A stretch of 24,000 nucleotides of DNA from positions 27,646-51,645 of the forward strand of contig JBGVED010000022.1 of NCBI GenBank assembly GCA_045119835.1, written 5' to 3'. The stretch is from Bacilli bacterium (GTDB taxonomy: Bacteria > Bacillota_I > Bacilli_A > RFN20 > DUOF01). Made by a program: the position numbers and the translations under genes. The notes below the pieces were generated by a model. It saw only the letters and a list, made by a program, of their open reading frames with translations. It had not been told where the DNA came from and did not search any database. This document shows, in pieces, positions 3,107 through 24,000 of the stretch; the stretch's first letter is position 1, and each line of letters begins with the position of its first letter.

Positions 3107-3169
3107 TATTCCTTTCTTTATTAGACTAGCTTCTCGCTACTCTTTTATTACTTTTATTAATAGCAAATA

Positions 3170-9235: not shown

Positions 9236-9260
9236 TTATGAAGGTACCTATTTATTGATA

Positions 9261-9352
9261 TAGTGTGTTAAGGCTCTATTTTGGAGCCCCCACCCTGTTA
9301 AGGTCTGGGACACACTAGGAGAGAATGATCCGTAGGGTGATTATTGCTCTCC
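9261..9352 (+). promoter_or_regulatory. GC-rich structured 5' leader of the 9412 gene
   Basis: Closing stem TAGTGTGT (9261-9268)/ACACACTA (9310-9317) encloses GGCTC/GAGCC (9272-9276/9284-9288) and CCCA/TGGG (9289-9292/9306-9309). A second domain is GGAGAG/CTCTCC (9318-9323/9347-9352). TGTTAAGG occurs twice. Confidence 0.45.
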
Positions 9353-9411
9353 ACATACTAGCATGATTGGATCAATGGGCAACGTCCCACCACATGCATT
9401 GGAGGTATGTT

Positions 9412-10122
9412 ATGATGAAAACTAAAAGATATGAATGTACAGGTGAAGGTGTAGTGCGCCTTATGAAACAACATAATGTTTCTGAGGTAACACTAATCTC
9501 TAAATACCTATGTCGTTGTATTAAAACTACTACTCGTTCTATTGAGTACTTCGATTTAAGAAGTTTTTCTTGGTACGATGTAACTGTTAATATATATAGC
9601 AATGGGTATACTGAGATACATGTATTCAACAACTTAGATACTAAGTGTGAAATATGTGCTCCTGCTGTACAATACTGTGATGAATTACCTAAACCTATAG
9701 GGTTCGATAATAGATACTACTTCCATGGAACTATGGCTTATAACCATTGTACTTTAGAAGAGGGTGTACAAAGAATCCTAGATGTTAAGGATAACTCATC
9801 ATGGCAAATATGCTGCTCTACAAGACACCTTGGACCATGTGGAATCATAGTAAAAGGTGATGTCATAGCAGTGTCTAATATCGATCTATGCTCTGATATA
9901 GACGATAATGGACGCAGATACTATGATGCACGTCATTGGAGAGCAAATAGTATGGTCTATAGTCTTAAAGACATAGACAATACTAAGTGGCATCACAACG
10001 AAATAATTGTGAAAGACCACTATATAGCAGCTCTATGGGTGAGTAGAGACGCACCTGTAGCAGTTATTACAGCTATCGAAGATTTGGCTAAAAAGCTAAA
10101 TCTAAGATGGATGTATGTGTAA
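9412..10122 (+). CDS. Paralog-family protein 1 (236 aa), FHG...CST[RK]...NEII motif set (possible ART fold)
   Basis: ORF-track ORF trimmed to the ATG at 9412 (GGAGG 6 nt upstream). The C-terminal ~130 aa align by eye with the 11542..12039 protein: YFHGT / ICCSTRHLGPCGIIVKGDVIAVSNIDLCSDIDDNGRRYYD / NEIIVKD...LAKKLNL. Confidence 0.8.
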   Translation: MMKTKRYECTGEGVVRLMKQHNVSEVTLISKYLCRCIKTTTRSIEYFDLRSFSWYDVTVNIYSNGYTEIHVFNNLDTKCEICAPAVQYCDELPKPIGFDNRYYFHGTMAYNHCTLEEGVQRILDVKDNSSWQICCSTRHLGPCGIIVKGDVIAVSNIDLCSDIDDNGRRYYDARHWRANSMVYSLKDIDNTKWHHNEIIVKDHYIAALWVSRDAPVAVITAIEDLAKKLNLRWMYV

Positions 10123-10627
10123 TCCGTCAGTCCTGAGTAAGACTATAAACTACTCCCCTATATATATAGGGTATGTCTAATGCAGCCACCTATATGGTGC
10201 AGGTCACAAGCCCTGGTAAATGCAGAGTGGACATAGGAGTTAATGCTTCTCCTCTATCAAAAAGCTAACCTAACCAATTTAAAATGAGTCGGGCTGCCAA
10301 GGCCCCTTAAACTTGGCCAGTTGTCAGTACTGATAGTATGAACTGACTGGGTTTTGTTCTCAATTCTTTCCCATCAAAAAAGGAATTGTCTGCCTAATCA
10401 GGACCGACCAAGTCCCTAAACTGGCGGGTGTATAGCATTAGGCTATCCCCTATAACAAATGATAAAGGTGCATGAGATAGCTCTTCGGTTAGGGCTGGCA
10501 CTGTTCTTGGTTAGGTACCAGTACTACTACGATAGGTTGTGCCAGTGCCATACCGTCAATACATAAACCACATTGACATAGGGTTTAATGTGCTTATGTA
10601 TAAAATAAACTATATAGGGGTGTTTAT
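10123..10627 (+). ncRNA. Candidate large (~500 nt) structured non-coding RNA / GC-rich ORF-free island
   Basis: No ORF of 60 aa or more on either strand, and clearly more GC-rich than the flanking genes. Local helices: 10156-10171 (CCCTAT/ATAGGG), 10172-10177/10230-10235, 10294-10320 (CTGCCAAG/CTTGGCCAG with one bulge), 10324-10328/10342-10346 (TCAGT/ACTGA), 10392-10398/10437-10443 (GCCTAAT/ATTAGGC) enclosing GGAC/GTCC, 10496-10503/10543-10550 (TGGCACTG/CAGTGCCA), 10555-10560/10572-10577 (GTCAAT/ATTGAC). Strand inferred from neighbouring genes. Confidence 0.4.
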
Positions 10628-11416
10628 ATGTATAACAAATTAAGATCTGTAATATTATTAGCTTATAAAAAAGAGATATGTAGAAGAGAAATACTAGATT
10701 GTGATGCTAGAGAAGACATAGAAAATGATATAAATGATATCATAGAATCTAGTTTACGCAATTATGTAGATCAAAGTGAACATTTCTCTAGACCTAAACG
10801 ATTAGTATATGACGATACTTGTGCTCCTATTAATGCTTATGGTTATTATATGCATATGATAGATCTAATAACATTAGATGAAAATTTAAGATGTTTTTAT
10901 TCAATGGCTTCTCTTAATTTTCTTGAAACATTAAAAGTAAGCGTTAATACATTCTTACATGAACATCGTCATTGTCATCAATACAAAACTAACATGGATA
11001 TATTAAACCATCCACTATCTAATAAAAATAATCCTGAGTATGTATATGCAAATAGTCCTCTAGAATTAGATGCTAATAAATATGCAGATATGTATGAATT
11101 AGAAGCAGTAGAATGGATTATAGATAGTATAGAATCATGGTTTGATGTTAAATACACTAAAGATATAGTAGAAGCTGATATTAGAGATGATGTAAGAGCA
11201 GCTATAGAAAACTACTATAATAATTTACCTGAAGAAGAAATAGAAAATAGTTTAGCTGAAATGGAAGAAGAATTAGAAGAATACGAAATGACACAAGCTA
11301 TGTTATCTATGCTAGATGATGATGAAGAAGATGAAATAGAAGAAATAACAATAGATCCAGATGAAGACATAAAAGAATGGTTTAGACAATATGAAGAACA
11401 ATTTGGTGAATGGTAG
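10628..11416 (+). CDS. ImmA/IrrE-like (M78-type) HExxH zinc metallopeptidase with a hyper-acidic C-terminal tail (262 aa)
   Basis: AGGGGTG SD lies 5 nt upstream. HEHRH at aa 111-115, followed 31 aa later by E-L-D-A-N-K-Y-A, matching the family's HExxH...ExxANxFA signature. aa ~195-262 are Glu/Asp-rich and end in EEQFGEW. Confidence 0.6.
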   Translation: MYNKLRSVILLAYKKEICRREILDCDAREDIENDINDIIESSLRNYVDQSEHFSRPKRLVYDDTCAPINAYGYYMHMIDLITLDENLRCFYSMASLNFLETLKVSVNTFLHEHRHCHQYKTNMDILNHPLSNKNNPEYVYANSPLELDANKYADMYELEAVEWIIDSIESWFDVKYTKDIVEADIRDDVRAAIENYYNNLPEEEIENSLAEMEEELEEYEMTQAMLSMLDDDEEDEIEEITIDPDEDIKEWFRQYEEQFGEW

Positions 11417-11422
11417 TATATA

Positions 11423-11449
11423 GGGCTCATAATAATATGGGCCCTTTTT
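11423..11449 (+). terminator. Intrinsic terminator
   Basis: GGGCTCATA-ATAA-TATGGGCCC (9 bp with one G.U) followed by TTTTT, 7 nt after the stop. Confidence 0.75.
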
Positions 11450-11460
11450 ATGTTTTAAAT

Positions 11461-11519
11461 AATCTGTCCAGGTGTAGATGCCTGCTGATGAGTCTTTGCA
11501 AATTAAGACGAAACAGATT
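11461..11519 (+). promoter_or_regulatory. Structured 5' leader (three-way-junction-like) of the 11542 gene
   Basis: Closing stem AATCTGT/ACAGATT (11461-11467/11513-11519) encloses CAGG/CCTG (11469-11472/11481-11484) and GTCTT/AAGAC (11492-11496/11505-11509). Confidence 0.4.
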
Positions 11520-11541
11520 AAATATATTGGGAGGTTTTACT

Positions 11542-12039
11542 ATGAGTAAAATATATGTAAAAGATTATTATCAAATGAATAAAGGATTATTTGAAAACTT
11601 TGAAGATAAAAAATTCTTTCATGGGTTTGGCGCATTCTTTGCGTCAAAAACACCATTAGAAAGAAAATTCACAAGATTAATAGAAGATACAAATGAAGAA
11701 TTCGAAATATGTACATCAACTAAAGCTTGCGGTATGAGTGGAGTCATAGTGCAAGGTAGAGTATTATTAGCTGCAAATTCTGATTTATGTTCAGGAATAA
11801 ATGCTAATGGTAGATACTTTGATTCTAAACAATTAGATGAATTAGTATTCGACTTTAATGATTTAGAATTATGGGAGGATGATTGCGAAGAAAATAATGA
11901 AATCATCCTAGATCATGTACAAGTAGTAGGTATATGGTATTGTGAAGATGCTAACAACAATGTTAAAGCTTTATGTAAACGTTTAGCTGAATTATATAAT
12001 CTACCATTAATAAATGCTGGTCTAAGCATATTTAATTAA
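11542..12039 (+). CDS. Paralog-family protein 2 (165 aa), FHG...CTSTK...NEII motif set
   Basis: GGGAGG lies 7 nt upstream of the ATG at 11542. The track's upstream extension from 11410 overlaps the terminator and leader. Alignable with the 9412 protein: FFHGF / ICTSTKACGMSGVIVQGRVLLAANSDLCSGINANGRYFD / NEIILDH...LAELYNL. Confidence 0.8.
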   Translation: MSKIYVKDYYQMNKGLFENFEDKKFFHGFGAFFASKTPLERKFTRLIEDTNEEFEICTSTKACGMSGVIVQGRVLLAANSDLCSGINANGRYFDSKQLDELVFDFNDLELWEDDCEENNEIILDHVQVVGIWYCEDANNNVKALCKRLAELYNLPLINAGLSIFN

Positions 12040-12064
12040 GAGCTCTAATTATTAGGGCTCTTTT
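12038..12064 (+). terminator. Intrinsic terminator overlapping the stop codon
   Basis: AAGAGCTC-TAATTATTA-GGGCTCTT (8 bp with one G.U) followed by TT. Confidence 0.6.
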
Positions 12065-12077
12065 ACATCTTTGTTTA

Positions 12078-12167
12078 ATATTTCTATAGTTTTTTTATTT
12101 TTTTTACTATTTGTTCAAACGAGAGCGCACCTAAGTACTCTCTATTTTTACATATAACTAAAGATAA
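12078..12167 (+). promoter_or_regulatory. Cassette intergenic repeat, copy 1 (promoter-like block)
   Basis: ATTTCTATAGTTTTTTTATTTTTTTTAC...CGAGAGCGCACCT...TTTACATATAACTAAAGATAAA. Shared almost verbatim with 12799-12887 and partly with 13580-13650. CGAGAGCGC core at 12120-12128. Confidence 0.5.
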
Positions 12168-12769: not shown

Positions 12770-12787
12770 TAGCATCCTTTCTTTGTA
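12754..12787 (+). terminator. Intrinsic terminator with the stop codon in its loop
   Basis: AGGATGCTA-AATAG-TAGCATCCT followed by TTCTTT. The TAG stop (12767-12769) is in the loop. Confidence 0.65.
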
Positions 12788-12798
12788 TTCCTATGATT

Positions 12799-12887
12799 AT
12801 ATTTCTATAGTTTTTTTATTTTTTTTACATGTTGTACACTCGAGAGCGCACCTTATTGTGCTCTCATTTACATATAACTAATGATAA
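12799..12887 (+). promoter_or_regulatory. Cassette intergenic repeat, copy 2
   Basis: Same block as copy 1. CGAGAGCGC at 12841-12849, inside hairpin GAGAGC/GCTCTC. TTTACATATAACTAATGATAAA follows. Confidence 0.5.
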
Positions 12888-12927: not shown

Positions 12928-13557
12928 ATGAGTAAAAAAGATATAGAAAGATTAAAAAATATGAAGAAACAAAATAATATGAAGAATCAAATGACTAGAC
13001 AAGAAAAAATACAAAGTATAGAAAATTTAGAAAAGAAATTAGCTGACATGTTTAATCAACGTAGTGAAGAAGAATTAAGAAGTATAATAGAAAGACACAA
13101 AAGAAATCAATCAGTTATATATTTTAACGATCATGACAAAGCATTTCAATTTTTAAGAAATAATGATTATAGTGTAGACATATTAGGTACAGTAAGTGAA
13201 GTTAGCAAAATAAGAAATGTAAATGGTGTAAGAACTATGTGTCTAGAAAATATATATATGGTAGCTGTTGAAAATGATAACGTTTGTATATGCGTTGACC
13301 ATATATGGATGAATGAAGAATTATCATGGACAATACTAAAGAATATATTGAAATATCCTGGTAAGGCTGGATATGAAATATTTATCAATAGATTAAAGCC
13401 AATAAAATATACAGAAGAATATTACAACAATGGAGTTGAAAAACACAGATATCAATTAACACAATTAACTAAAAAGAAAAGAATTGCTTGGGTTCAAAAA
13501 GTACAAAGAGCCAATGGAATAACAATGTCAGTAGAAAAAATAGCAGAAATATTATAG
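12928..13557 (+). CDS. Hypothetical protein, basic coiled N-terminus (209 aa)
   Basis: AAGGGGA SD lies 7 nt upstream. No recognised motif. Confidence 0.8.
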   Translation: MSKKDIERLKNMKKQNNMKNQMTRQEKIQSIENLEKKLADMFNQRSEEELRSIIERHKRNQSVIYFNDHDKAFQFLRNNDYSVDILGTVSEVSKIRNVNGVRTMCLENIYMVAVENDNVCICVDHIWMNEELSWTILKNILKYPGKAGYEIFINRLKPIKYTEEYYNNGVEKHRYQLTQLTKKKRIAWVQKVQRANGITMSVEKIAEIL

Positions 13558-13584
13558 GGTCCTTTATTTTAAGGACTCTTTTTC
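13558..13584 (+). terminator. Intrinsic terminator
   Basis: GGTCCTT-TATTTT-AAGGACT (7 bp with one G.U) followed by CTTTTTC. Confidence 0.6.
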
Positions 13585-13650
13585 TATTTTTATAGTTTTT
13601 TTATTTTTTTTACATGGTGCGCACTCGAGAGCGCATCTAATTACATATTC
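13580..13650 (+). promoter_or_regulatory. Cassette intergenic repeat, copy 3 (diverged 3' half)
   Basis: TTTTTATAGTTTTTTTATTTTTTTTACA, then the near-palindrome GCGCACTCGAGAGCGC (CGAGAGCGC at 13626-13634), then TTACATATTCA. Confidence 0.45.
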
Positions 13651-13755
13651 ATGGACCAATCCATGTGAGGTCCTTAAATAACATCATGGAACCCGATCCA
13701 GTTTTTAATGTGGGGGTTGTCTGTCATCCCATCCCAAAAACAGTCAAATACCAAT

Positions 13756-13806
13756 ATGGGGTTAGGGTTGAACCTCGGTCAAAAACCCATGTGTAGTCTT
13801 ACACAT
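13756..13806 (+). promoter_or_regulatory. Conserved two-hairpin leader motif, copy 1 (upstream of the polymerase gene)
   Basis: ATGGGGTTA-GGGTT-GAACCTCGGTCAAA-AACCC-ATGTG-TAGTCTTA-CACAT. Paralogous to 15942-15992, with compensatory changes in both stems. AAGGAGGG SD and the ATG follow within 25 nt. Confidence 0.6.
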
Positions 13807-13828
13807 TAGCTCAAGGAGGGCAAATATC

Positions 13829-15808
13829 ATGTCAATGAATAACAGTAAATTAAGAGGAATATCAAAAGGATTTGGAAGCAACAAATTACTAAGACAAAAG
13901 ATAAACGAAGCTATATATGCAACAAGTGTAGTAGTTAACAAAATAGAATTAAGCTACAACAAAGAAACAAAAGAATATGAAATAACTAAAGACGTTAGAG
14001 GATTAGCAGTATGGAATCCTGTATTTGAAAGATTTGGCTTAAACAGAGACTATCAAAAGATGAATGTAACAGTAGAAGCAGAAGATGACAATGGAAACAC
14101 AACTAAACGTAAAGTTAATATAGACGGTGAATCAGTAGTTATGTGTGACAGCATAATGTTCATCAAATGTGATAACCTTAAACAAATAGCTAAAATGGAC
14201 GAAGAAGGATTCGTATATAATGGTGAATTATATAGAGTACTAGGTGCTTCTCCTTCTCAACAAAAACACGCAGTTAAAGCTTATTTTAAAGTGACTAATG
14301 AATTCCCAACTGAAAAACATGCATTCTTAGCTATGGACGAAGTAAGTGGTTTTGTCTTTACTAAGGGTATATTCAGAAACAAAGTATCTGGACAAAAAGT
14401 TATTGCTGCCAATACAAGATTTGGTAACTATTTAACAGGTATGCAATGCTTAGCTAAAATAGACTTATCAAAAGATTATATAGTTATAGTTGACGGAAGC
14501 ATACCAGGAGCATATGATTTTGACGAACAAACTAGAGAAGAAATGGAAGCTAAAGGACTTGAATTTGACTGCAACATCAATGATGGAGCTTTACACTTTG
14601 GTGTTCCAACAATACAAGAAATAGGACAAAATGTAGGTGTTAGTTTAACAGAAGAAGATGCATTAAGAGTTGCTTTACAATCAAGAATAACTTATATAAC
14701 AGCTAAAGTTATGGGTGACTGTATGCCAGAAAATCAATTATTACAAATGGCAGCACTTCCTAATGCAGTTAAATATGGAAACACAAACGGAAGATTAATG
14801 TTAGTATGCGATACAGATGGAGCAAAAGCTTTAGCAGTTCCTGAATTAGAAAACGGTACAGCTGTATTAGATGTATACGTTATGGCTCAAGCTGCGGTTT
14901 CTGAACCAAAAAGTTCAGGACAACATTTAATCAAATATATGGCAGTTGCTCCAGAAAGAACATTAGAATTCATAAACACAGTGACTACTGAAAATTTAGA
15001 AGCATATGTTATGAATCAAGTAGCAGAAGGTAAAGGTTCTACAGTTGTTGACGATATAAAAAGAGCTCTTGGAGAAGATGCTTTCACAACTAAGATATTT
15101 GTAGAAGGTATATACAGAGATGCTTTCAAGTTTGTACAATCAGCTATAGCTAAAACTAAATTATCTATAGAAGCAGTATATAGCCATATGACATTTGATA
15201 GTACTTTTGTATTAACTAAAGGATTAATCAGAGGTATACTAGACATAACTAATGAAGGTTTTGTACAAGCATTCTGTCCAGACGTATTAAGAAAATATGC
15301 TAAAGAAATAGCTGCTATAGAAAATGATCCAACATTAACAGAAAGAGAAAAAGAAGTAAAATTATTTAACTTACTATCTGGTACAGTTATAAAATACCCT
15401 TCTGCAGGAACAAAAGAATTTGAAATCATAGTTTATCAAACTATGAAACAAATAGAAACATCTATAAAATCTAGAGTTGCAGAACTAGGATTAGACAATA
15501 AGGATGCAGAAGCTATGGTAGATATGTTATTAGCATATTTTGAAAATAGACCATATGGAACAACTACTTTTGCACCATTAAACGCATTAAAAAACAAGTT
15601 GGCGGGAGCCGACTGTGATTTTGATGCTACTATGACAGATATGAGTGAATTAAAACACATCCTTATAGAGAAAAGATTAGAAGAACAAGAAAAACAACCT
15701 GGATTTATGGGGGATTGTACTTTTATCAGCTATAAAGATGTACCAAGAACAGAAGATAAAAATGTTGTTGAAGATACTTTAGGAAACACTGATGATATAG
15801 AATGGTAG
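13829..15808 (+). CDS. Compact two-barrel RNA polymerase, RdRP/QDE-1/YonO-like (659 aa)
   Basis: The CDS itself is near-certain (strong SD, terminator). The function call rests on an ordered motif series: GELYRVLGASPSQQKHAVKAYF (aa 132-153), ANTRFGN (194-200), NDGALHFG (251-258), LQSRITYITAKV (283-294), IKYPSAGTKEFEII (521-534), LAGADCDFD (591-599; DxDxD, DNA 15611-15625). C-terminal tail EDTLGNTDDIEW. Confidence 0.6.
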   Translation: MSMNNSKLRGISKGFGSNKLLRQKINEAIYATSVVVNKIELSYNKETKEYEITKDVRGLAVWNPVFERFGLNRDYQKMNVTVEAEDDNGNTTKRKVNIDGESVVMCDSIMFIKCDNLKQIAKMDEEGFVYNGELYRVLGASPSQQKHAVKAYFKVTNEFPTEKHAFLAMDEVSGFVFTKGIFRNKVSGQKVIAANTRFGNYLTGMQCLAKIDLSKDYIVIVDGSIPGAYDFDEQTREEMEAKGLEFDCNINDGALHFGVPTIQEIGQNVGVSLTEEDALRVALQSRITYITAKVMGDCMPENQLLQMAALPNAVKYGNTNGRLMLVCDTDGAKALAVPELENGTAVLDVYVMAQAAVSEPKSSGQHLIKYMAVAPERTLEFINTVTTENLEAYVMNQVAEGKGSTVVDDIKRALGEDAFTTKIFVEGIYRDAFKFVQSAIAKTKLSIEAVYSHMTFDSTFVLTKGLIRGILDITNEGFVQAFCPDVLRKYAKEIAAIENDPTLTEREKEVKLFNLLSGTVIKYPSAGTKEFEIIVYQTMKQIETSIKSRVAELGLDNKDAEAMVDMLLAYFENRPYGTTTFAPLNALKNKLAGADCDFDATMTDMSELKHILIEKRLEEQEKQPGFMGDCTFISYKDVPRTEDKNVVEDTLGNTDDIEW

Positions 15809-15815
15809 TATTTAT

Positions 15816-15842
15816 GGGCTCAGTTTATGCTGGGCCCTTTTT
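15816..15842 (+). terminator. Intrinsic terminator (paralogous to the one at 11423)
   Basis: GGGCTCAG-TTTATG-CTGGGCCC (8 bp with one G.U) followed by TTTTT. Confidence 0.75.
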
Positions 15843-15843
15843 A

Positions 15844-15870
15844 TATATCTATGTATAATGCATAGATATA
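15844..15870. promoter_or_regulatory. 10-bp inverted repeat with TATAAT in the loop
   Basis: TATATCTATG-TATAATG-CATAGATATA, immediately after the terminator. Candidate -10 box embedded in an operator-like palindrome. Confidence 0.4.
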
Positions 15871-15941
15871 ATGGGAGCTAAATAATCGGCAGCCTCCTCG
15901 TTGGCGCTCCTGGATATCCAACCAATGCCGTAAATACTATT

Positions 15942-15992
15942 ATGGGGTTAGGGCTGAACCTCGGTCAAAAGCCCGTGCATAGTCTTATGCAC
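15942..15992 (+). promoter_or_regulatory. Conserved two-hairpin leader motif, copy 2
   Basis: ATGGGGTTA-GGGCT-GAACCTCGGTCAAA-AGCCC-GTGCA-TAGTCTTA-TGCAC, followed by the AGGAGGG SD and the ATG at 16018. Confidence 0.6.
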
Positions 15993-16017
15993 TTTGCCTA
16001 TAGGAGGGCGTATATAT

Positions 16018-17655
16018 ATGAAATCAACAAACTCATTAAACAATGTAAAAATGAACAGAAGAGATACTTTATTACAAAAAGTATATGACGGAACTATAAG
16101 CTTAAAAGATTTAAGACAAATGGAAAATATAGACATGAACCAATGTCAATATCCAATTAGGGTTTTACAAAAAGTGTTTAACCCTATATCACTTGTAGGG
16201 CCTACTACAACTGTAGTAGGTAACATCATAAATATAGATGTAGATGACCCTCAAGGATTTGAAGAATTCAAAGATGCTCTATTATTACTAAACGATGAAG
16301 GTACTCATACACCATATGGAGAATCAATATGGAAAATAGGTAAAAACGTATTCTGTGGTTATAAATTCTATAATCATAAATTCTACGTTTATTATCAAGT
16401 AACTAATGCTGAAATGGCTGAAATCGAAAGAAAAATAAAAGGTATGAGAAGAAGCGAAATGACAGTGGAAGATGCTAAACAATTACAAAAAGATTTAGAC
16501 TCTGTACTTCGTGGATGGCAAGAATCTAGTATTGACGTTCACAAAGATGAAAAGAAATCATTCTCATATGATTTCAGACACTTCTTTAAGAAAGTAGATG
16601 TAGTGTCTAACTATTGTAAAACACATGCCGATAAAATAGAAATGAATACAAAAGAAATGTTTAAAGACCATAAGAAAGTTGATTCTAAAGAATTCAAAAT
16701 AACATTACCAAGCGATAATCCATTAGGTGACGATGTAGTATGTAAAGACTTAATAGGTAGAGTAACAGAAGAAATAAGAAAAGCTGCTGAAACATTCTTT
16801 AACGGCGACTTAAAAGATATATATGCAATGAGTAATATGGATGCTTTCTTACCATTTGTAGGTTATGCTCAAGCTAATCCAGAATTAGCATTATTCATAA
16901 AAGATATATATCAAATATGCTACAACGCTATAGGAAAAGAAACAATAGAAAAAGAACAATATGCTTTACTAAGAAATGTTGTATATTCTAAAGCTTTAGA
17001 TCTAGGTGTTGAATTCCAAGATGTAGTTAAAGTAGCTATAGACTGTGCAATGGTATCTGTTAAAGAAACTAAAGAAGGTATAGAAGTTACAAACTCTGAC
17101 GTTAACAGATTTAAACTATATCCAATAGTTAATATGTTTGGTAAAGAGTTTAAAGTAGCTATGACTAACCAACCTTATATGGAGACAATAGCAACAGAAG
17201 ATGATTTCTTAGTATTTGACAGATTTATAAAAGATAACGAAGAAATAGAATTCGTTAATGGTAAATCAACTGATGATAAATTAGTTATGATAAACGATTT
17301 CACAGGAACAGCTGTAGAATGTAATGGTGTATTAGTAGCTGAAACTAATGTTTATGCATTTGAAGAAGTAAAAGCTATGATAGTATTCAAAACATTCGAC
17401 GCAAAAGCAACTCCAAAACAAGCTATATATGATAAAACTGGTGCTTTATTAGACAGCTTAATTGAAGAAAACAATTTTGCAGGTATGAGAGTAACAGGTA
17501 AAAATAACAATGGTTTAAGAAACAACACTAACTTAATAGGTGTATTTAGAAGTACTTGTGCATTTGTTAAAGATGAAATAGTTGAACCAACAGATATAAT
17601 AGCATATGATCCAAAACCTGCTAGCCAAAAACTATTCTTAATTATCTGTAAATAA
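16018..17655 (+). CDS. Hypothetical 545-aa protein sharing its leader motif with the polymerase gene
   Basis: ORF-track ORF trimmed to the ATG at 16018 (AGGAGGG 9 nt upstream). No motif recognised. Same leader motif as the polymerase gene. Confidence 0.85.
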   Translation: MKSTNSLNNVKMNRRDTLLQKVYDGTISLKDLRQMENIDMNQCQYPIRVLQKVFNPISLVGPTTTVVGNIINIDVDDPQGFEEFKDALLLLNDEGTHTPYGESIWKIGKNVFCGYKFYNHKFYVYYQVTNAEMAEIERKIKGMRRSEMTVEDAKQLQKDLDSVLRGWQESSIDVHKDEKKSFSYDFRHFFKKVDVVSNYCKTHADKIEMNTKEMFKDHKKVDSKEFKITLPSDNPLGDDVVCKDLIGRVTEEIRKAAETFFNGDLKDIYAMSNMDAFLPFVGYAQANPELALFIKDIYQICYNAIGKETIEKEQYALLRNVVYSKALDLGVEFQDVVKVAIDCAMVSVKETKEGIEVTNSDVNRFKLYPIVNMFGKEFKVAMTNQPYMETIATEDDFLVFDRFIKDNEEIEFVNGKSTDDKLVMINDFTGTAVECNGVLVAETNVYAFEEVKAMIVFKTFDAKATPKQAIYDKTGALLDSLIEENNFAGMRVTGKNNNGLRNNTNLIGVFRSTCAFVKDEIVEPTDIIAYDPKPASQKLFLIICK

Positions 17656-18439: not shown

Positions 18440-18488
18440 AAAAATTATGGGTTATGCTTTATCCCTGAAAAGCTAGAAAGGATATACT

Positions 18489-19211
18489 ATGAAAACTACT
18501 ATAATGCAAATAATAAAATCAAACGAAAGATACAATGTTATACCAAAACTATATGAAATATTAACTGATAAATATGGCAAATTAACAATTGCTGGTGGAG
18601 CAATTATTGATTGCTTCTATGACAAACCATTTTATGATGTTGATTGTTTTATTAACATCAAAGATTTAAAACCAGAATGGAAACAAAAACTACACATAAG
18701 AAAAGATACTCATGTACTTGATGTATTAAGAGACAATATAGATGGCTTTGACATTGACATAGTTGTAATAGACTATTCAGTAGCAAAACACATCCGTCGT
18801 TTTGACCAACGCTTCAAGCAAGCTTGGTATGATGACAAAGGTCTTCACATGACTAAAGGAGCAGCAAAAGATATAACTGACAATAAAGTAAGAGTAGGTG
18901 TTTTAAATGGCCCTGCTATATACTTTAGAGTAATCCGTTCAGCTAGAAAATATGGTATGCATCTTGATGATACAGACATGTGGCTAATGGAAAACTTTAT
19001 GTCTTGCCTAGATAAATTAAGACTACCTAAGAAATATCAACACATGAAAAGAGAATTCTTACCTTATAAGAATCCTGACAAATTACTAGGAGAAATAGTA
19101 TATAAATACTCACAAAACTACTGGAATACTAAATTATTATACGCACCAAGCTGGACAACATTAAAATTATTCTTATTACCAGCAATAATAAAACACAACA
19201 GAAATAAATAG
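18489..19211 (+). CDS. Pol-beta-superfamily nucleotidyltransferase (CCA-adding/poly(A)-polymerase-like head), 240 aa
   Basis: IAGGAIIDCFYDKPFYDVDCFI fits hG[GS]-x(9-13)-Dh[DE]h. A further acidic strand is FDIDIVVID. RRFDQRF is reminiscent of the RRDFT motif of class II CCA-adding enzymes. Confidence 0.55.
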   Translation: MKTTIMQIIKSNERYNVIPKLYEILTDKYGKLTIAGGAIIDCFYDKPFYDVDCFINIKDLKPEWKQKLHIRKDTHVLDVLRDNIDGFDIDIVVIDYSVAKHIRRFDQRFKQAWYDDKGLHMTKGAAKDITDNKVRVGVLNGPAIYFRVIRSARKYGMHLDDTDMWLMENFMSCLDKLRLPKKYQHMKREFLPYKNPDKLLGEIVYKYSQNYWNTKLLYAPSWTTLKLFLLPAIIKHNRNK

Positions 19212-21133: not shown

Positions 21134-21770
21134 GGAGGCAGGGGCACATACTTTCACACGAGAGCGCCAAAATTTCCCCCCTTCGGGGGAGATGGCTCCA
21201 CCCTTCGGGCTCGCCCCTCACGGGTCAGGCTCCGCTCCGCTACGCGGAACCTTCGGTTCCACGTGCTCCGCTCCGCAAAAGACAAAACCCAGCTCCGCTA
21301 CGCTGCGCGAAACCTTCGGTTTCACTCAGCTTCGCTCCGCAAAAGACAAAAGCATCGCTCACTACGTTCGCTCACACAAAGGCGTTTGTAATGAGTGTGT
21401 GCTCGCATGCGCTCGCACAAAAGACAAAAACCACAAAAGACAAAGCCTTGCACAAAGGCGTGCTTTATGGTGTTACGCCCACATGTACTGCCCCCTTCGG
21501 GGCCAGTGCCATGGGGCTAACGCTGCACAGGGCACTCAAACAACGAGTGCCTTGCACAAAGGCGTGTTTTATGATAGAGCATGCTCACTGCGTTCGCACA
21601 AAAGCGTTCGTAGTGCGTCTAGCGCGCTTGCGCTTGCACAAAGGCGTGTTCTATGGAAATACGTCTTGCTTATGCAGTCAGTATGTATGGCATTAACGAG
21701 TGCCATAACTGGTCGTGTATACGACATTGACGAGCGCCACACAAAGGCGTGATTTATGATTTTAAAAAAA
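21134..21770 (+). other. GC-rich repeat- and hairpin-dense non-coding island (structured RNA array, promoter/terminator array or replication origin)
   Basis: CACAAAGGCGTG at 21451, 21555, 21637 and 21740 (plus CACAAAGGCGTT at 21375), each followed by NTT(T/C)TATG(G/A). AAAAGACAAA at 21277, 21341, 21419 and 21435. CCTTCGG-centred hairpins at 21177-21189, 21246-21260, 21309-21323 and 21487-21507. Further hairpins at 21686-21707 and 21712-21725. CGAGAGCGC core at 21159-21167. Ends in an A/T tract (21755-21775). Confidence 0.5.
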
Positions 21771-21781
21771 ATTTATTAGGT

Positions 21782-21801
21782 TGTAGGTCGTCGTGCCTAC
21801 A
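21782..21801 (+). promoter_or_regulatory. TCGTCGTG-loop hairpin, copy 1 (leader of the 21820 gene)
   Basis: TGTAGG-TCGTCGTG-CCTACA, preceded by TTAGGT and followed by GGAAATAGGGGT (SD) and the ATG. Confidence 0.55.
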
Positions 21802-22549: not shown

Positions 22550-22564
22550 AATAATTAATTAGGT

Positions 22565-22584
22565 GATAAGTCGTCGTGCTTATC
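22565..22584 (+). promoter_or_regulatory. TCGTCGTG-loop hairpin, copy 2 (leader of the 22604 gene)
   Basis: GATAAG-TCGTCGTG-CTTATC, preceded by TTAGGT and followed by GGAATCAAGGGTG (SD) and the ATG. Confidence 0.55.
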
Positions 22585-22603
22585 GGAATCAAGGGTGATT
22601 AAT

Positions 22604-23745: not shown

Positions 23746-23749
23746 TAAT

Positions 23750-23915
23750 ATCAGCGCGAGGCCGAAGGCCGAGCGCGTCTTCCCTTTTGAAAGGGATTGA
23801 GGGTTAGGCGCCGAGCGTATAGCGAGGCGCAATAACACATATGATAAACTATAAGCTAGACTTATAGGTTGAACGAGGCGAGCGTAAGCGAGCCGAGTGA
23901 AAAGGCACTCTCACA
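23750..23915 (+). other. GC-rich intergenic segment with GAGCG/GCGAG mirror-type repeats and hairpins
   Basis: GCGAGGCCGAAGGCCGAGCG (inner GGCC-GAA-GGCC hairpin), CCCTT-TTGA-AAGGG hairpin, GCGCC-GAGCGTATAGCGA-GGCGC hairpin, GGCGAGCGTAAGCGAGCC, GAGTG-AAAAGG-CACTC hairpin. Confidence 0.35.
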
Positions 23916-23923
23916 TTTTGAGC

Positions 23924-23994
23924 AAAAGTTTAGTATAACTAGTCCTATACTAGAAGTTTTAGAACACAACTGTGATAAAAGTTTAGTATAACTA
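23924..23994. repeat. Direct repeat AAAAGTTTAGTATAACTA x2 (53-bp spacing)
   Basis: Exact 18-mers at 23924-23941 and 23977-23994. The array may continue past the window end. Confidence 0.6.
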
Positions 23995-24000
23995 AACATA

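Follow-up and report, generated by a model that had tools for sequence, protein, structure and literature searches.

What does a short structured motif do in a phage messenger when it precedes the gene for an RNA polymerase and the next gene downstream, in two copies whose stems differ while their pairing is kept? We address this question for a window of 24,000 nucleotides (nt) of DNA (positions 27,646 to 51,645 of contig JBGVED010000022.1, from the Bacilli bacterium assembly GCA_045119835.1), in which a sequence-only reading had described a two-hairpin leader motif with compensatory substitutions, shared by the genes for a 659- and a 545-amino-acid (aa) protein and placed upstream of their Shine-Dalgarno (SD) sequences. 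As judged from alignments of relatives, the motif belongs to the 5' untranslated region (5'-UTR) as an RNA element of the sense strand, folded as a compact H-type pseudoknot. We regard it as about evenly balanced whether this pseudoknot acts as a cis-acting 5'-UTR module that would be a natural counterpart of the synthetic insulator RiboJ.

The role of most self-cleaving ribozymes in bacteria and phages is a long-standing open question, for which the locus offers a concrete, testable model: ribozymes of three classes are predicted in the mRNA leaders considered here, and two of these classes are systematically trailed by a pseudoknot with covarying stems, placed right against the ribosome-binding site (RBS). 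The same leaders open an initial view of how genes are expressed in a phage clade known from metagenomes alone, one with a QDE-1/YonO-like RNA polymerase, and supply compact natural parts for synthetic biology.

The leader pseudoknot and its comparative support

Both copies were found where the sequence-only reading had placed them (ATGGGGTTAGGGTTGAACCTCGGTCAAAAACCCATGTGTAGTCTTACACAT at 13756-13806 and ATGGGGTTAGGGCTGAACCTCGGTCAAAAGCCCGTGCATAGTCTTATGCAC at 15942-15992), although the repeat begins 10 nt before the noted start, at AAATAC (repeat family D18, 13746-13801 and 15932-15987, 56 nt at 88% identity). A 24-nt core with two free positions occurs exactly twice, compared to 0.00 occurrences expected from shuffles. 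The copies differ at eight bases, all of them within the two stems already noted and with pairing kept each time: stem 1 holds a single double change (GGGTT/AACCC vs GGGCT/AGCCC) and stem 2 holds three (pairs 1, 4 and 5, ATGTG/CACAT vs GTGCA/TGCAC), while the copies agree at the other 43 of the motif's 51 positions, those of the 8-nt loop among them. A functional RNA structure in the leader, as originally proposed, is borne out, and both noted stems covary among relatives as well. Its anatomy, on the other hand, has to be redrawn. The parts taken to be single-stranded are partly paired, GGGG with CCUC (stem A), and the noted stem 1 becomes stem B, one half of an H-type pseudoknot (Table 1). 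The spacing of 10-25 nt to the SD likewise needs correction, with AGGAGGG starting 7 nt (13814) and 9 nt (16002) past the motif.

The single-sequence folding energies of the two copies are unremarkable (z = -1.0 and -2.1), and their antisense strands fold about equally well. Because single-sequence thermodynamics is uninformative, the structural case rests on comparative evidence, for which relatives were gathered in two ways, as homologues of the 659-aa protein and with a DNA pattern derived from the element that lies upstream of copy 2; 12 of the 29 metagenome and genome matches to the pattern were discarded as chance occurrences inside GC-rich coding sequence. Among the relatives, the G-runs that precede stem B (GGGG, GAGG, AGGG, GGAG, GGG) always match C-runs (CCUC, CCCC, CCCU, CUCC, CCC) within the presumed loop of the noted stem 1. 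In an alignment of 36 distinct instances from metagenomic relatives (A3, registered by hand, with N as gap placeholder), 89.2% of the cells are paired, compared to 70.3% in shuffles (a value reached in 0 of 500). Stem B is paired in 97.9% of cells, with all six of its pairs changed on both sides, and stem A in 90.3%, with three of its four pairs changed on both sides. When the partner strand is slid by 1-3 columns, pairing falls to 30-60%. Since A3 was fitted by hand, we repeated the count on plain MAFFT alignments, where 15 long forms of the element (those that carry a hairpin after stem B) have 95.5% of their cells paired and a covariation score of 0.544, compared to 0.256 in shuffles (0 of 500). 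In 10 window-like leaders, pairing amounts to 100% in stem A, 96% in stem B, 91% in the hairpin that follows the pseudoknot (hairpin C, the noted stem 2) and 87.5% in a helix over the SD (helix D), and RNAalifold selects stem A, hairpin C and helix D unaided.

Two other pairings were considered and rejected. A nested fold (GGG..CCC around GGCUGA/UCGGUC), which is the choice of RNAfold for copy 2, suits both window copies but fails in relatives, where 74.5% of cells are paired, a value not above shuffles (116 of 500). An inward extension of stem A by U-A and U.G pairs is paired in 62% of the cells of A3. As G.U pairs are numerous in the pseudoknot and would become A.C mismatches on the other strand, we assign the fold to the gene-sense strand; in agreement with this, all 23 strong matches of a long-form covariance model in 219 kb lie on the sense strand and upstream of genes. 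In general make-up, the element has a G-rich/C-rich stem A, a freely covarying stem B, a U-rich loop 1 (L1) and an A-rich end of loop 3 (L3). The loop bases vary among the instances of A3, except for the U that opens L1 and the AA at the close of L3, both of which are generic pseudoknot-stabilizing features. No Rfam 15 family matched the motif, either at gathering thresholds or in permissive scans that covered the window, both leaders, the third copy described below and seven relatives.

Downstream of the pseudoknot, hairpin C begins 0-1 nt past stem B in 15 of 20 long forms, and the remaining five carry an alternative conserved hairpin in its place, beginning 1-10 nt past stem B. Helix D covaries, with an ACCU/GGGU variant in the relative L040; in leaders of the L003 type, GCC is placed in the hairpin-C loop instead of in helix D. 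A sequence-conserved hairpin/loop motif (GUCGUCGUG / ACACGCAACGUCGUGCC), which has the look of a binding site, replaces hairpin C in some relatives and is present in other leaders, at ~21780-21795 and ~22560-22590 (+) of the window and in L011 (5950-5990), L028, L018 and L015 (8040-8080). A kissing partner for the UAGUCUUA loop was sought as well, and its complement TAAGACTA was found at 3168, 10138 and 19018, in contexts that we consider unconvincing. The idea that the 3' strand of stem A (CCUC) acts as a switchable anti-SD was also set aside, as it would form 4 base pairs at most and is absent from the short forms.

These short forms lack hairpin C, and one of them is a third copy in the window that the sequence-only reading had missed, lying 3 nt ahead of the SD that serves a nucleotidyltransferase-like gene (18489-19211, phrog_1614). 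Genes of at least six families have the short form (consensus UGGGUUCUCACUUAGCCCUAAAAGUGA) ahead of them in relatives, and the RNA polymerase and neighbour genes themselves come with the long form or the short form, depending on the phage. The motif is thus not peculiar to the polymerase pair, contrary to what had been assumed, and its spread over at least six gene families argues against the polymerase-specific autoregulation that had been suggested, as the element is not confined to the mRNAs of genes so regulated. The module varies further, in that it occurs in one to three copies, which can stand in tandem, with a ribozyme in some leaders and none in others. Downstream of the short forms, the SD is reached after 1-6 nt and the AUG after 12-18 nt, whereas 9 to 75 nt separate the element from the stop codon on its upstream side. 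As the spacing to the SD and AUG is narrow and that to the upstream stop is wide, we take the element to be tied to the downstream initiation site.

Table 1. Pseudoknots, hairpins and predicted ribozymes of the leaders, in window coordinates
Feature	Position	Strand	Sequence or pairing	Evidence or context
Copy 1, H-type pseudoknot	13758..13788	+		covariance model R1, 50.8 bits, E 3e-8; alignments
Copy 1, stem A	13758-61 with 13773-76	+	GGGG with CCUC	alignments
Copy 1, stem B (noted stem 1)	13765-69 with 13784-88	+	GGGUU with AACCC	alignments
Copy 1, loops	L3 13777-83	+	L1 UUA; L2 GAA; L3 GGUCAAA	
Copy 1, hairpin C (noted stem 2)	13789..13806	+	AUGUGUA-GUCU-UACACAU	0 nt past stem B; covaries
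Copy 1, weak hairpin D	13809..13821	+	GCUC/GGGC	pairs 3' half of SD 13814-13820; start codon 13829
Copy 2, H-type pseudoknot	15944..15974	+		covariance model R1, 50.1 bits; alignments
Copy 2, stem A	15944-47 with 15959-62	+		
Copy 2, stem B	15951-55 with 15970-74	+	GGGCU with AGCCC	
Copy 2, hairpin C	15975..15992	+	GUGCAUA-GUCU-UAUGCAC	alignments
Copy 2, hairpin D	15996..16009	+	GCCU/GGGC	over SD 16002-16008; start codon 16018
Third, short pseudoknot copy	18449..18473	+	GGG UUAU GCUUU AU CCC UGA AAAGC	
Extra pseudoknot, leader 1	13712..13743	+	GGGG GUUGU CUGU CA UCCC AUCCCAAAA ACAG	same architecture
Candidate pseudoknot, leader 1	13653..13690	+	GGACC AA UCCAUG UGA GGUCC UUAAAUAACAU CAUGGA	
Pseudoknot 2 nt past twister	10236..10265	+	GGAG UUAAU GCUU CUCC UCUAUCAAA AAGC	weak R1 match, E 0.75
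Further pseudoknot	10291-316	+		
Predicted minimal P4-less HDV-like ribozyme	15873..15930	+		58 nt, 13 nt upstream of copy 2; self-cleavage predicted
HDV-like helix P1	15873-78/15906-11	+		
HDV-like helix P2	15887-91/15926-30	+		
HDV-like helix P3	15892-94/15903-05	+		
HDV-like helix P1.1	15896-97/15912-13	+		
Variable hairpin	15845..15869	+		3 nt upstream of predicted HDV-like cleavage site; equivalent hairpin in relatives
Predicted type-P1 twister ribozyme	10174..10233	+		Rfam 63.8 bits (gathering 67.2), E 1e-13; 505-nt leader of gene 10628
Predicted type III hammerhead ribozyme	11461-11519	+		Rfam 49.2 bits, above gathering score

Predicted ribozymes in the same leaders

The element upstream of copy 2 is, on its sequence and covariation, a minimal ribozyme of the hepatitis delta virus (HDV)-like kind. 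Its helices P1, P1.1, P2 and P3 form the nested double pseudoknot of this class, and the P4 helix is absent, consistent with the minimal subclass. In 21 homologues, all 336 cells are paired, with covariation at three pairs of P1, four pairs of P2 (CGGCA/UGCCG vs GACUA/UAGUC) and one pair of P1.1 (C-G vs U-A). A G.U pair stands at the base of P1 in 21 of 21 homologues, and the base at -1 is U or C in all leaders. An invariant C (C50, window 15922), within C(C/U)AA just before the 3' strand of P2 and at the start of J4/2, is the putative catalytic residue, and cleavage is predicted between U15872 and G15873. The Rfam scores of the element lie below the gathering thresholds (16.1 vs 50 bits for RF00094, 12.2 vs 44 for RF02682 and 11.2 vs 37 for RF01787), and a weak Rfam HDV match is also found in the relative L014. 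The variable hairpin on its 5' side always ends 3-5 nt short of the predicted cleavage site in relatives, and would, after cleavage, form the 3' end of the released upstream RNA.

Minimal HDV-like ribozymes, including the theta type, have been described from gut tailed phages, where they mostly lie beside tRNAs, and 526 copies not associated with tRNAs were listed without an assigned function (PMC10879173). The copies considered here resemble these ribozymes in their P4-less or very short-P4 nested double pseudoknot and in the position of the putative catalytic C at the start of J4/2, but differ in that they do not lie beside tRNAs; their place is instead in the leaders of mRNAs, where a start codon comes 70-90 nt further on, and they are coupled to the pseudoknot. 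In 22 of 23 leaders with the HDV-like ribozyme, a pseudoknot follows within about 8-15 nt. Conversely, the pseudoknot almost always comes after a predicted self-cleaving ribozyme.

The other two predicted ribozymes of the window are a twister and a hammerhead (Table 1), of which the twister is also trailed by a pseudoknot. The same order is seen in the relative L015, where 4 nt separate a twister (9890-9942) from a pseudoknot, with the SD coming next. The hammerhead is flanked by a terminator on one side and, on the other, by the SD of a gene whose start is at 11543 and whose extent the open reading frame (ORF) list overstates (entry 11410-12039). Two long, GC-richer noncoding leaders without an ORF (10123-10627 and 9250-9412, +) contain, beyond the twister, at least two pseudoknots and much other structure, including GGTTAGGGCTGGCAC at ~10488.

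Leader 1, by which we mean the stretch upstream of copy 1 (13643-13755), lacks the HDV-like ribozyme. Its extra pseudoknot covaries with that at the same place in the relative L002 (GGGAG/CUCCC, CUGUC/GACAG). The candidate pseudoknot at 13653-13690 shows no covariation, its sequence being identical in L001 and L002, and occupies the site at which relatives have the HDV-like ribozyme. It was considered as a pistol ribozyme on account of its hairpin-loop pseudoknot and UUAAAUA linker, and this was rejected: the aligned leaders contain no consistent P2 strand or G-U site, and pistol (RF02679) gave no Rfam match. A three-copy promoter-like repeat, D4 (TTTCTATAGTTTTTTTATTTTTTTTACAT, then a GAGAGCGCAC..GUGCUCUC hairpin), occurs at 12049-12136, 12770-12857 and 13555-13642 (+), after terminators and before three genes, and directly 5' of the HDV-like ribozyme in L003, L022 and L040; it may be the promoter of the phage polymerase plus a leader that is later cut off.

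Proposed function of the pseudoknot and its alternatives

Taken together, the leaders follow a recurrent order of small hairpin, ribozyme (HDV-like or twister), one to three pseudoknots, an optional hairpin, SD and AUG. In our proposal, the ribozyme would remove upstream RNA, either a promoter-proximal leader or the preceding cistron, and would remain as a compact fold at the new 5'-OH end, with the fast-folding local pseudoknot and hairpin serving as a structural spacer between the ribozyme core and the SD. CCUCC in loop L3 of the ribozyme core is a perfect anti-SD, and the SD (AGGAGGG) is very strong; the spacer would stop these two from pairing, guarding ribozyme folding and SD accessibility alike. 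It would also give the SD surroundings that are constant whatever the context, at the border of the site bound by the 30S subunit, and the structured 5' region may add a barrier to decay that depends on the 5' end, which would stabilize the message. The data suit such a structural role more than they suit a pocket for a ligand or an operator specific to one gene, since the element is modular, poorly conserved in its loops and generic across genes.

The closest synthetic parallel is RiboJ, in which the satellite tobacco ringspot virus (sTRSV) hammerhead ribozyme and a 23-nt hairpin precede the RBS; it removes variable upstream RNA, standardizes expression at a 2-10 fold higher level, and has a hairpin believed to make the RBS accessible and the mRNA more stable (PMC6206723). 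The phage cassette shares with RiboJ the order of a ribozyme kept at the 5' end, a small autonomous structure and the SD. It differs in being natural, in using HDV-like or twister ribozymes, in having as its spacer an H-type pseudoknot, often in tandem or joined by a hairpin, and in that its function is one that we infer. H-type leader pseudoknots and minimal HDV-like ribozymes are kinds of RNA already known, while the present pseudoknot family is missing from Rfam 15, and the coupling of such a pseudoknot to self-cleaving ribozymes in mRNA leaders was not found in the literature that we searched.

Several points weigh against a pure spacer. A3 was registered by hand, and many of its instances are kin by descent. 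Stem A is nearly always GGG/CCC and L3 of the long forms is GGYCAAA, which exceeds the conservation that a pure spacer needs. The hammerhead leader (11461-11519) has no pseudoknot, and window copies 1 and 3 have no ribozyme directly upstream. Moreover, the comparison itself demonstrates the structures, their covariation, positions and co-occurrence, while it is from the letters of the DNA that we infer cleavage, the state of folding and an influence on translation or on the stability of the mRNA. Finally, stems B and C changed by four compensatory pairs from one window copy to the other (copies 1 and 2), and the loops and stem A did not change at all, as a sequence-specific binder would give.

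This last point also speaks for a translational operator, in which a phage or host RNA-binding protein would recognize the pseudoknot (GGG-UU...CCC...AA), and here also the UAGUCUUA hairpin loop, and once bound would block or promote 30S binding, thereby coordinating a gene set, with autoregulation by the polymerase as a special case. RegA, gp32 and gp43 of phage T4 act in this way. Consistent with a binder, G4, U5, C19 and A32 are invariant over the 36 instances, the element lies 1-6 nt from the SD, and some relatives swap hairpin C for a sequence-conserved hairpin (..ACACGCAACGUCGUGCC..). However, the hairpin-C loop and L1-L3 differ between relatives, tandem copies differ in sequence, the element stands before at least six unrelated gene families and so is not polymerase-specific, and protein family searches of the window genes identified no RNA-binding protein nearby. 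While an operator role in the broad sense is possible, we hold a dedicated operator to be rather unlikely. Known leader pseudoknots offer a comparison: those of T4 gene 32 mRNA and of E. coli rpsO (S15) are H-type and influence 30S binding, but are gene-specific and autoregulated by their own protein, whereas the phage element is generic before many genes. The putL and putR RNAs of HK022 are likewise present as two copies per phage genome, with a conserved shape and compensatory differences, and act in cis on the transcript; they are two-stem-loop RNAs that modify the host RNA polymerase just past promoters, whereas the phage element is an SD-locked pseudoknot present in more than two copies. 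A miniature riboswitch, in which a small molecule would stabilize a fold beside the SD and so tune translation, is suggested by the preQ1-I aptamer (RF00522), likewise a small pseudoknot of the H type that lies just upstream of an SD. It has a G-rich/C-rich P1, an L1 that starts with U, an A-rich L3 and a local sequence resemblance: the B. subtilis preQ1-I sequence, AGAGGUUCUAGCUACACCCUCUAUAAAAAACUAA, resembles AGAGGUUAGGGUUUAUCCUCGGUCAAAAAACUC of L003, and that of T. tengcongensis, CUGGGUCGCAG.., resembles AUGGGUCGCUU... of L014. The topology and part of the sequence are thus alike, the first U of L1 and terminal A's of L3 are conserved, and tandem copies occur, as in some riboswitches. Set against this are the absence of any Rfam PreQ1 match even at E<=10 in four scans of small regions (76-321 nt), as well as in the scans at the gathering score, and the position of the ligand-pairing C (column 18 of A3), which is U in 23 of 36 instances, G in 9, A in 4 and never C. 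P2 is longer than in preQ1-I, L3 is often shorter (only 2-4 nt in the short forms), the junction bases vary, and the SD lies outside the fold and is not sequestered by the pseudoknot. The downstream genes encode the RNA polymerase, its neighbour, the nucleotidyltransferase-like protein and unknowns, with no queuosine genes and no common metabolic theme. We consider this preQ1-I-like riboswitch improbable, and scarcely less so the slightly wider notion of a responsive switch, be it a mini-aptamer that has U, G or A where preQ1-I has its ligand-pairing C, or a factor-binding site. If the wider notion were true, the pseudoknot would gate a regulon that includes a two-barrel RNA polymerase in concert with ribozyme processing, and an aptamer of ~25-31 nt would be the smallest natural aptamer class known.

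The remaining alternatives assign the motif to other kinds of element altogether. That the pseudoknot, alone or together with hairpin C, represents a novel and very small self-cleaving ribozyme in its own right is brought to mind by the three ribozyme classes inside 6 kb, as pistol, hatchet and twister-sister were conserved RNAs near twister or hammerhead that proved to be ribozymes, and pistol also opens with a hairpin-loop pseudoknot and an AAA linker. Yet it has no Rfam ribozyme match, no consistent pistol P2 or G-U site and few invariant unpaired bases; the short forms measure ~25 nt, and a second cut right behind the HDV-like ribozyme would be redundant, all of which makes this very improbable. 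Equally remote is an element that works as DNA, either an extruded hairpin promoter like those of N4, as had been offered in the sequence-only reading, or an antisense sigma-70-type promoter. The phage does encode its own RNA polymerase, and the minus strand of both copies reads TTGACC-18 nt-CATAAT/CATATT (13753-13782 and 15939-15968, -), with promoter-scan scores of 10/12 and 9/12, but such matches are not enriched (88 vs 79 expected), TTGACC is lost in many relatives (GGCCAAA, GUUAA, UUACAAA, short forms), and the covarying stems and pseudoknot, with G.U pairs that would be A.C on the other strand, are left unexplained. The promoter-like look of the minus strand is probably a by-product of the conserved L3 and the AU-rich 5' flank. 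The N4 type is made unlikely by the G.U pairs of the pseudoknot, by the sense-strand orientation of 23 of 23 strong model matches and by the position of the element downstream of a ribozyme in the transcript; moreover, instead of a DNA hairpin with a short stem and a 3-nt loop, we find a pseudoknot and loops of 8 nt or of variable length. Lastly, an AUG directly before GGGG could start a small upstream ORF (uORF) or leader peptide (MGLGLNLGQKP...). Both changes in stem B are synonymous in that frame, and AUG, GUG or UUG is found at that spot in about two thirds of instances; the start codon is, however, missing in 11 of the 34 scored instances (the last three were not scored), lengths range from 4 to 45 codons or end in fusion with the main ORF, and the frame relative to the main ORF differs, even between the window and L001, which are set apart by a 1-nt indel. 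An upstream SD is absent, and the changes in hairpin C are non-synonymous, leaving the uORF the faintest of chances.

The polymerase, its neighbour and the phage clade

That the 659-aa gene (13829-15808, +) encodes a polymerase, as the sequence-only reading had it, is upheld by an AlphaFold2 model (predicted local distance difference test score, pLDDT, of 81.6), which matches two-barrel RNA polymerases, namely QDE-1, RDR2 and the virion RNA polymerase of the crAss-like phage phi14:2, with E values from 1e-9 to 9e-4. Because of these structural matches, we assign the modeled protein to the two-barrel RNA polymerases; it has no sequence match in Pfam, PHROG or PDB, and a DxDxD motif is invariant in its family. 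Its 545-aa neighbour (16018-17655) likewise has no sequence match in Pfam, PHROG or PDB and no recognizable family. Searches of IMG/VR with the exact motif, the HDV-like core, the short-form pattern and the polymerase protein and profile returned no relatives, nor did DNA and protein searches of GenBank phage records, and the polymerase clade comprises about 200 metagenomic homologues.

Toward the end of the window, the AT-rich genome carries GC-rich short repeats (GCTCCGCTCCGC..., and CTTGCACAAAGGCGTG in four copies; 21229-21325, 21447-21766 and 23746-24000, +), and GC-rich hairpins lie past 23746 (+), within the last of these intervals.

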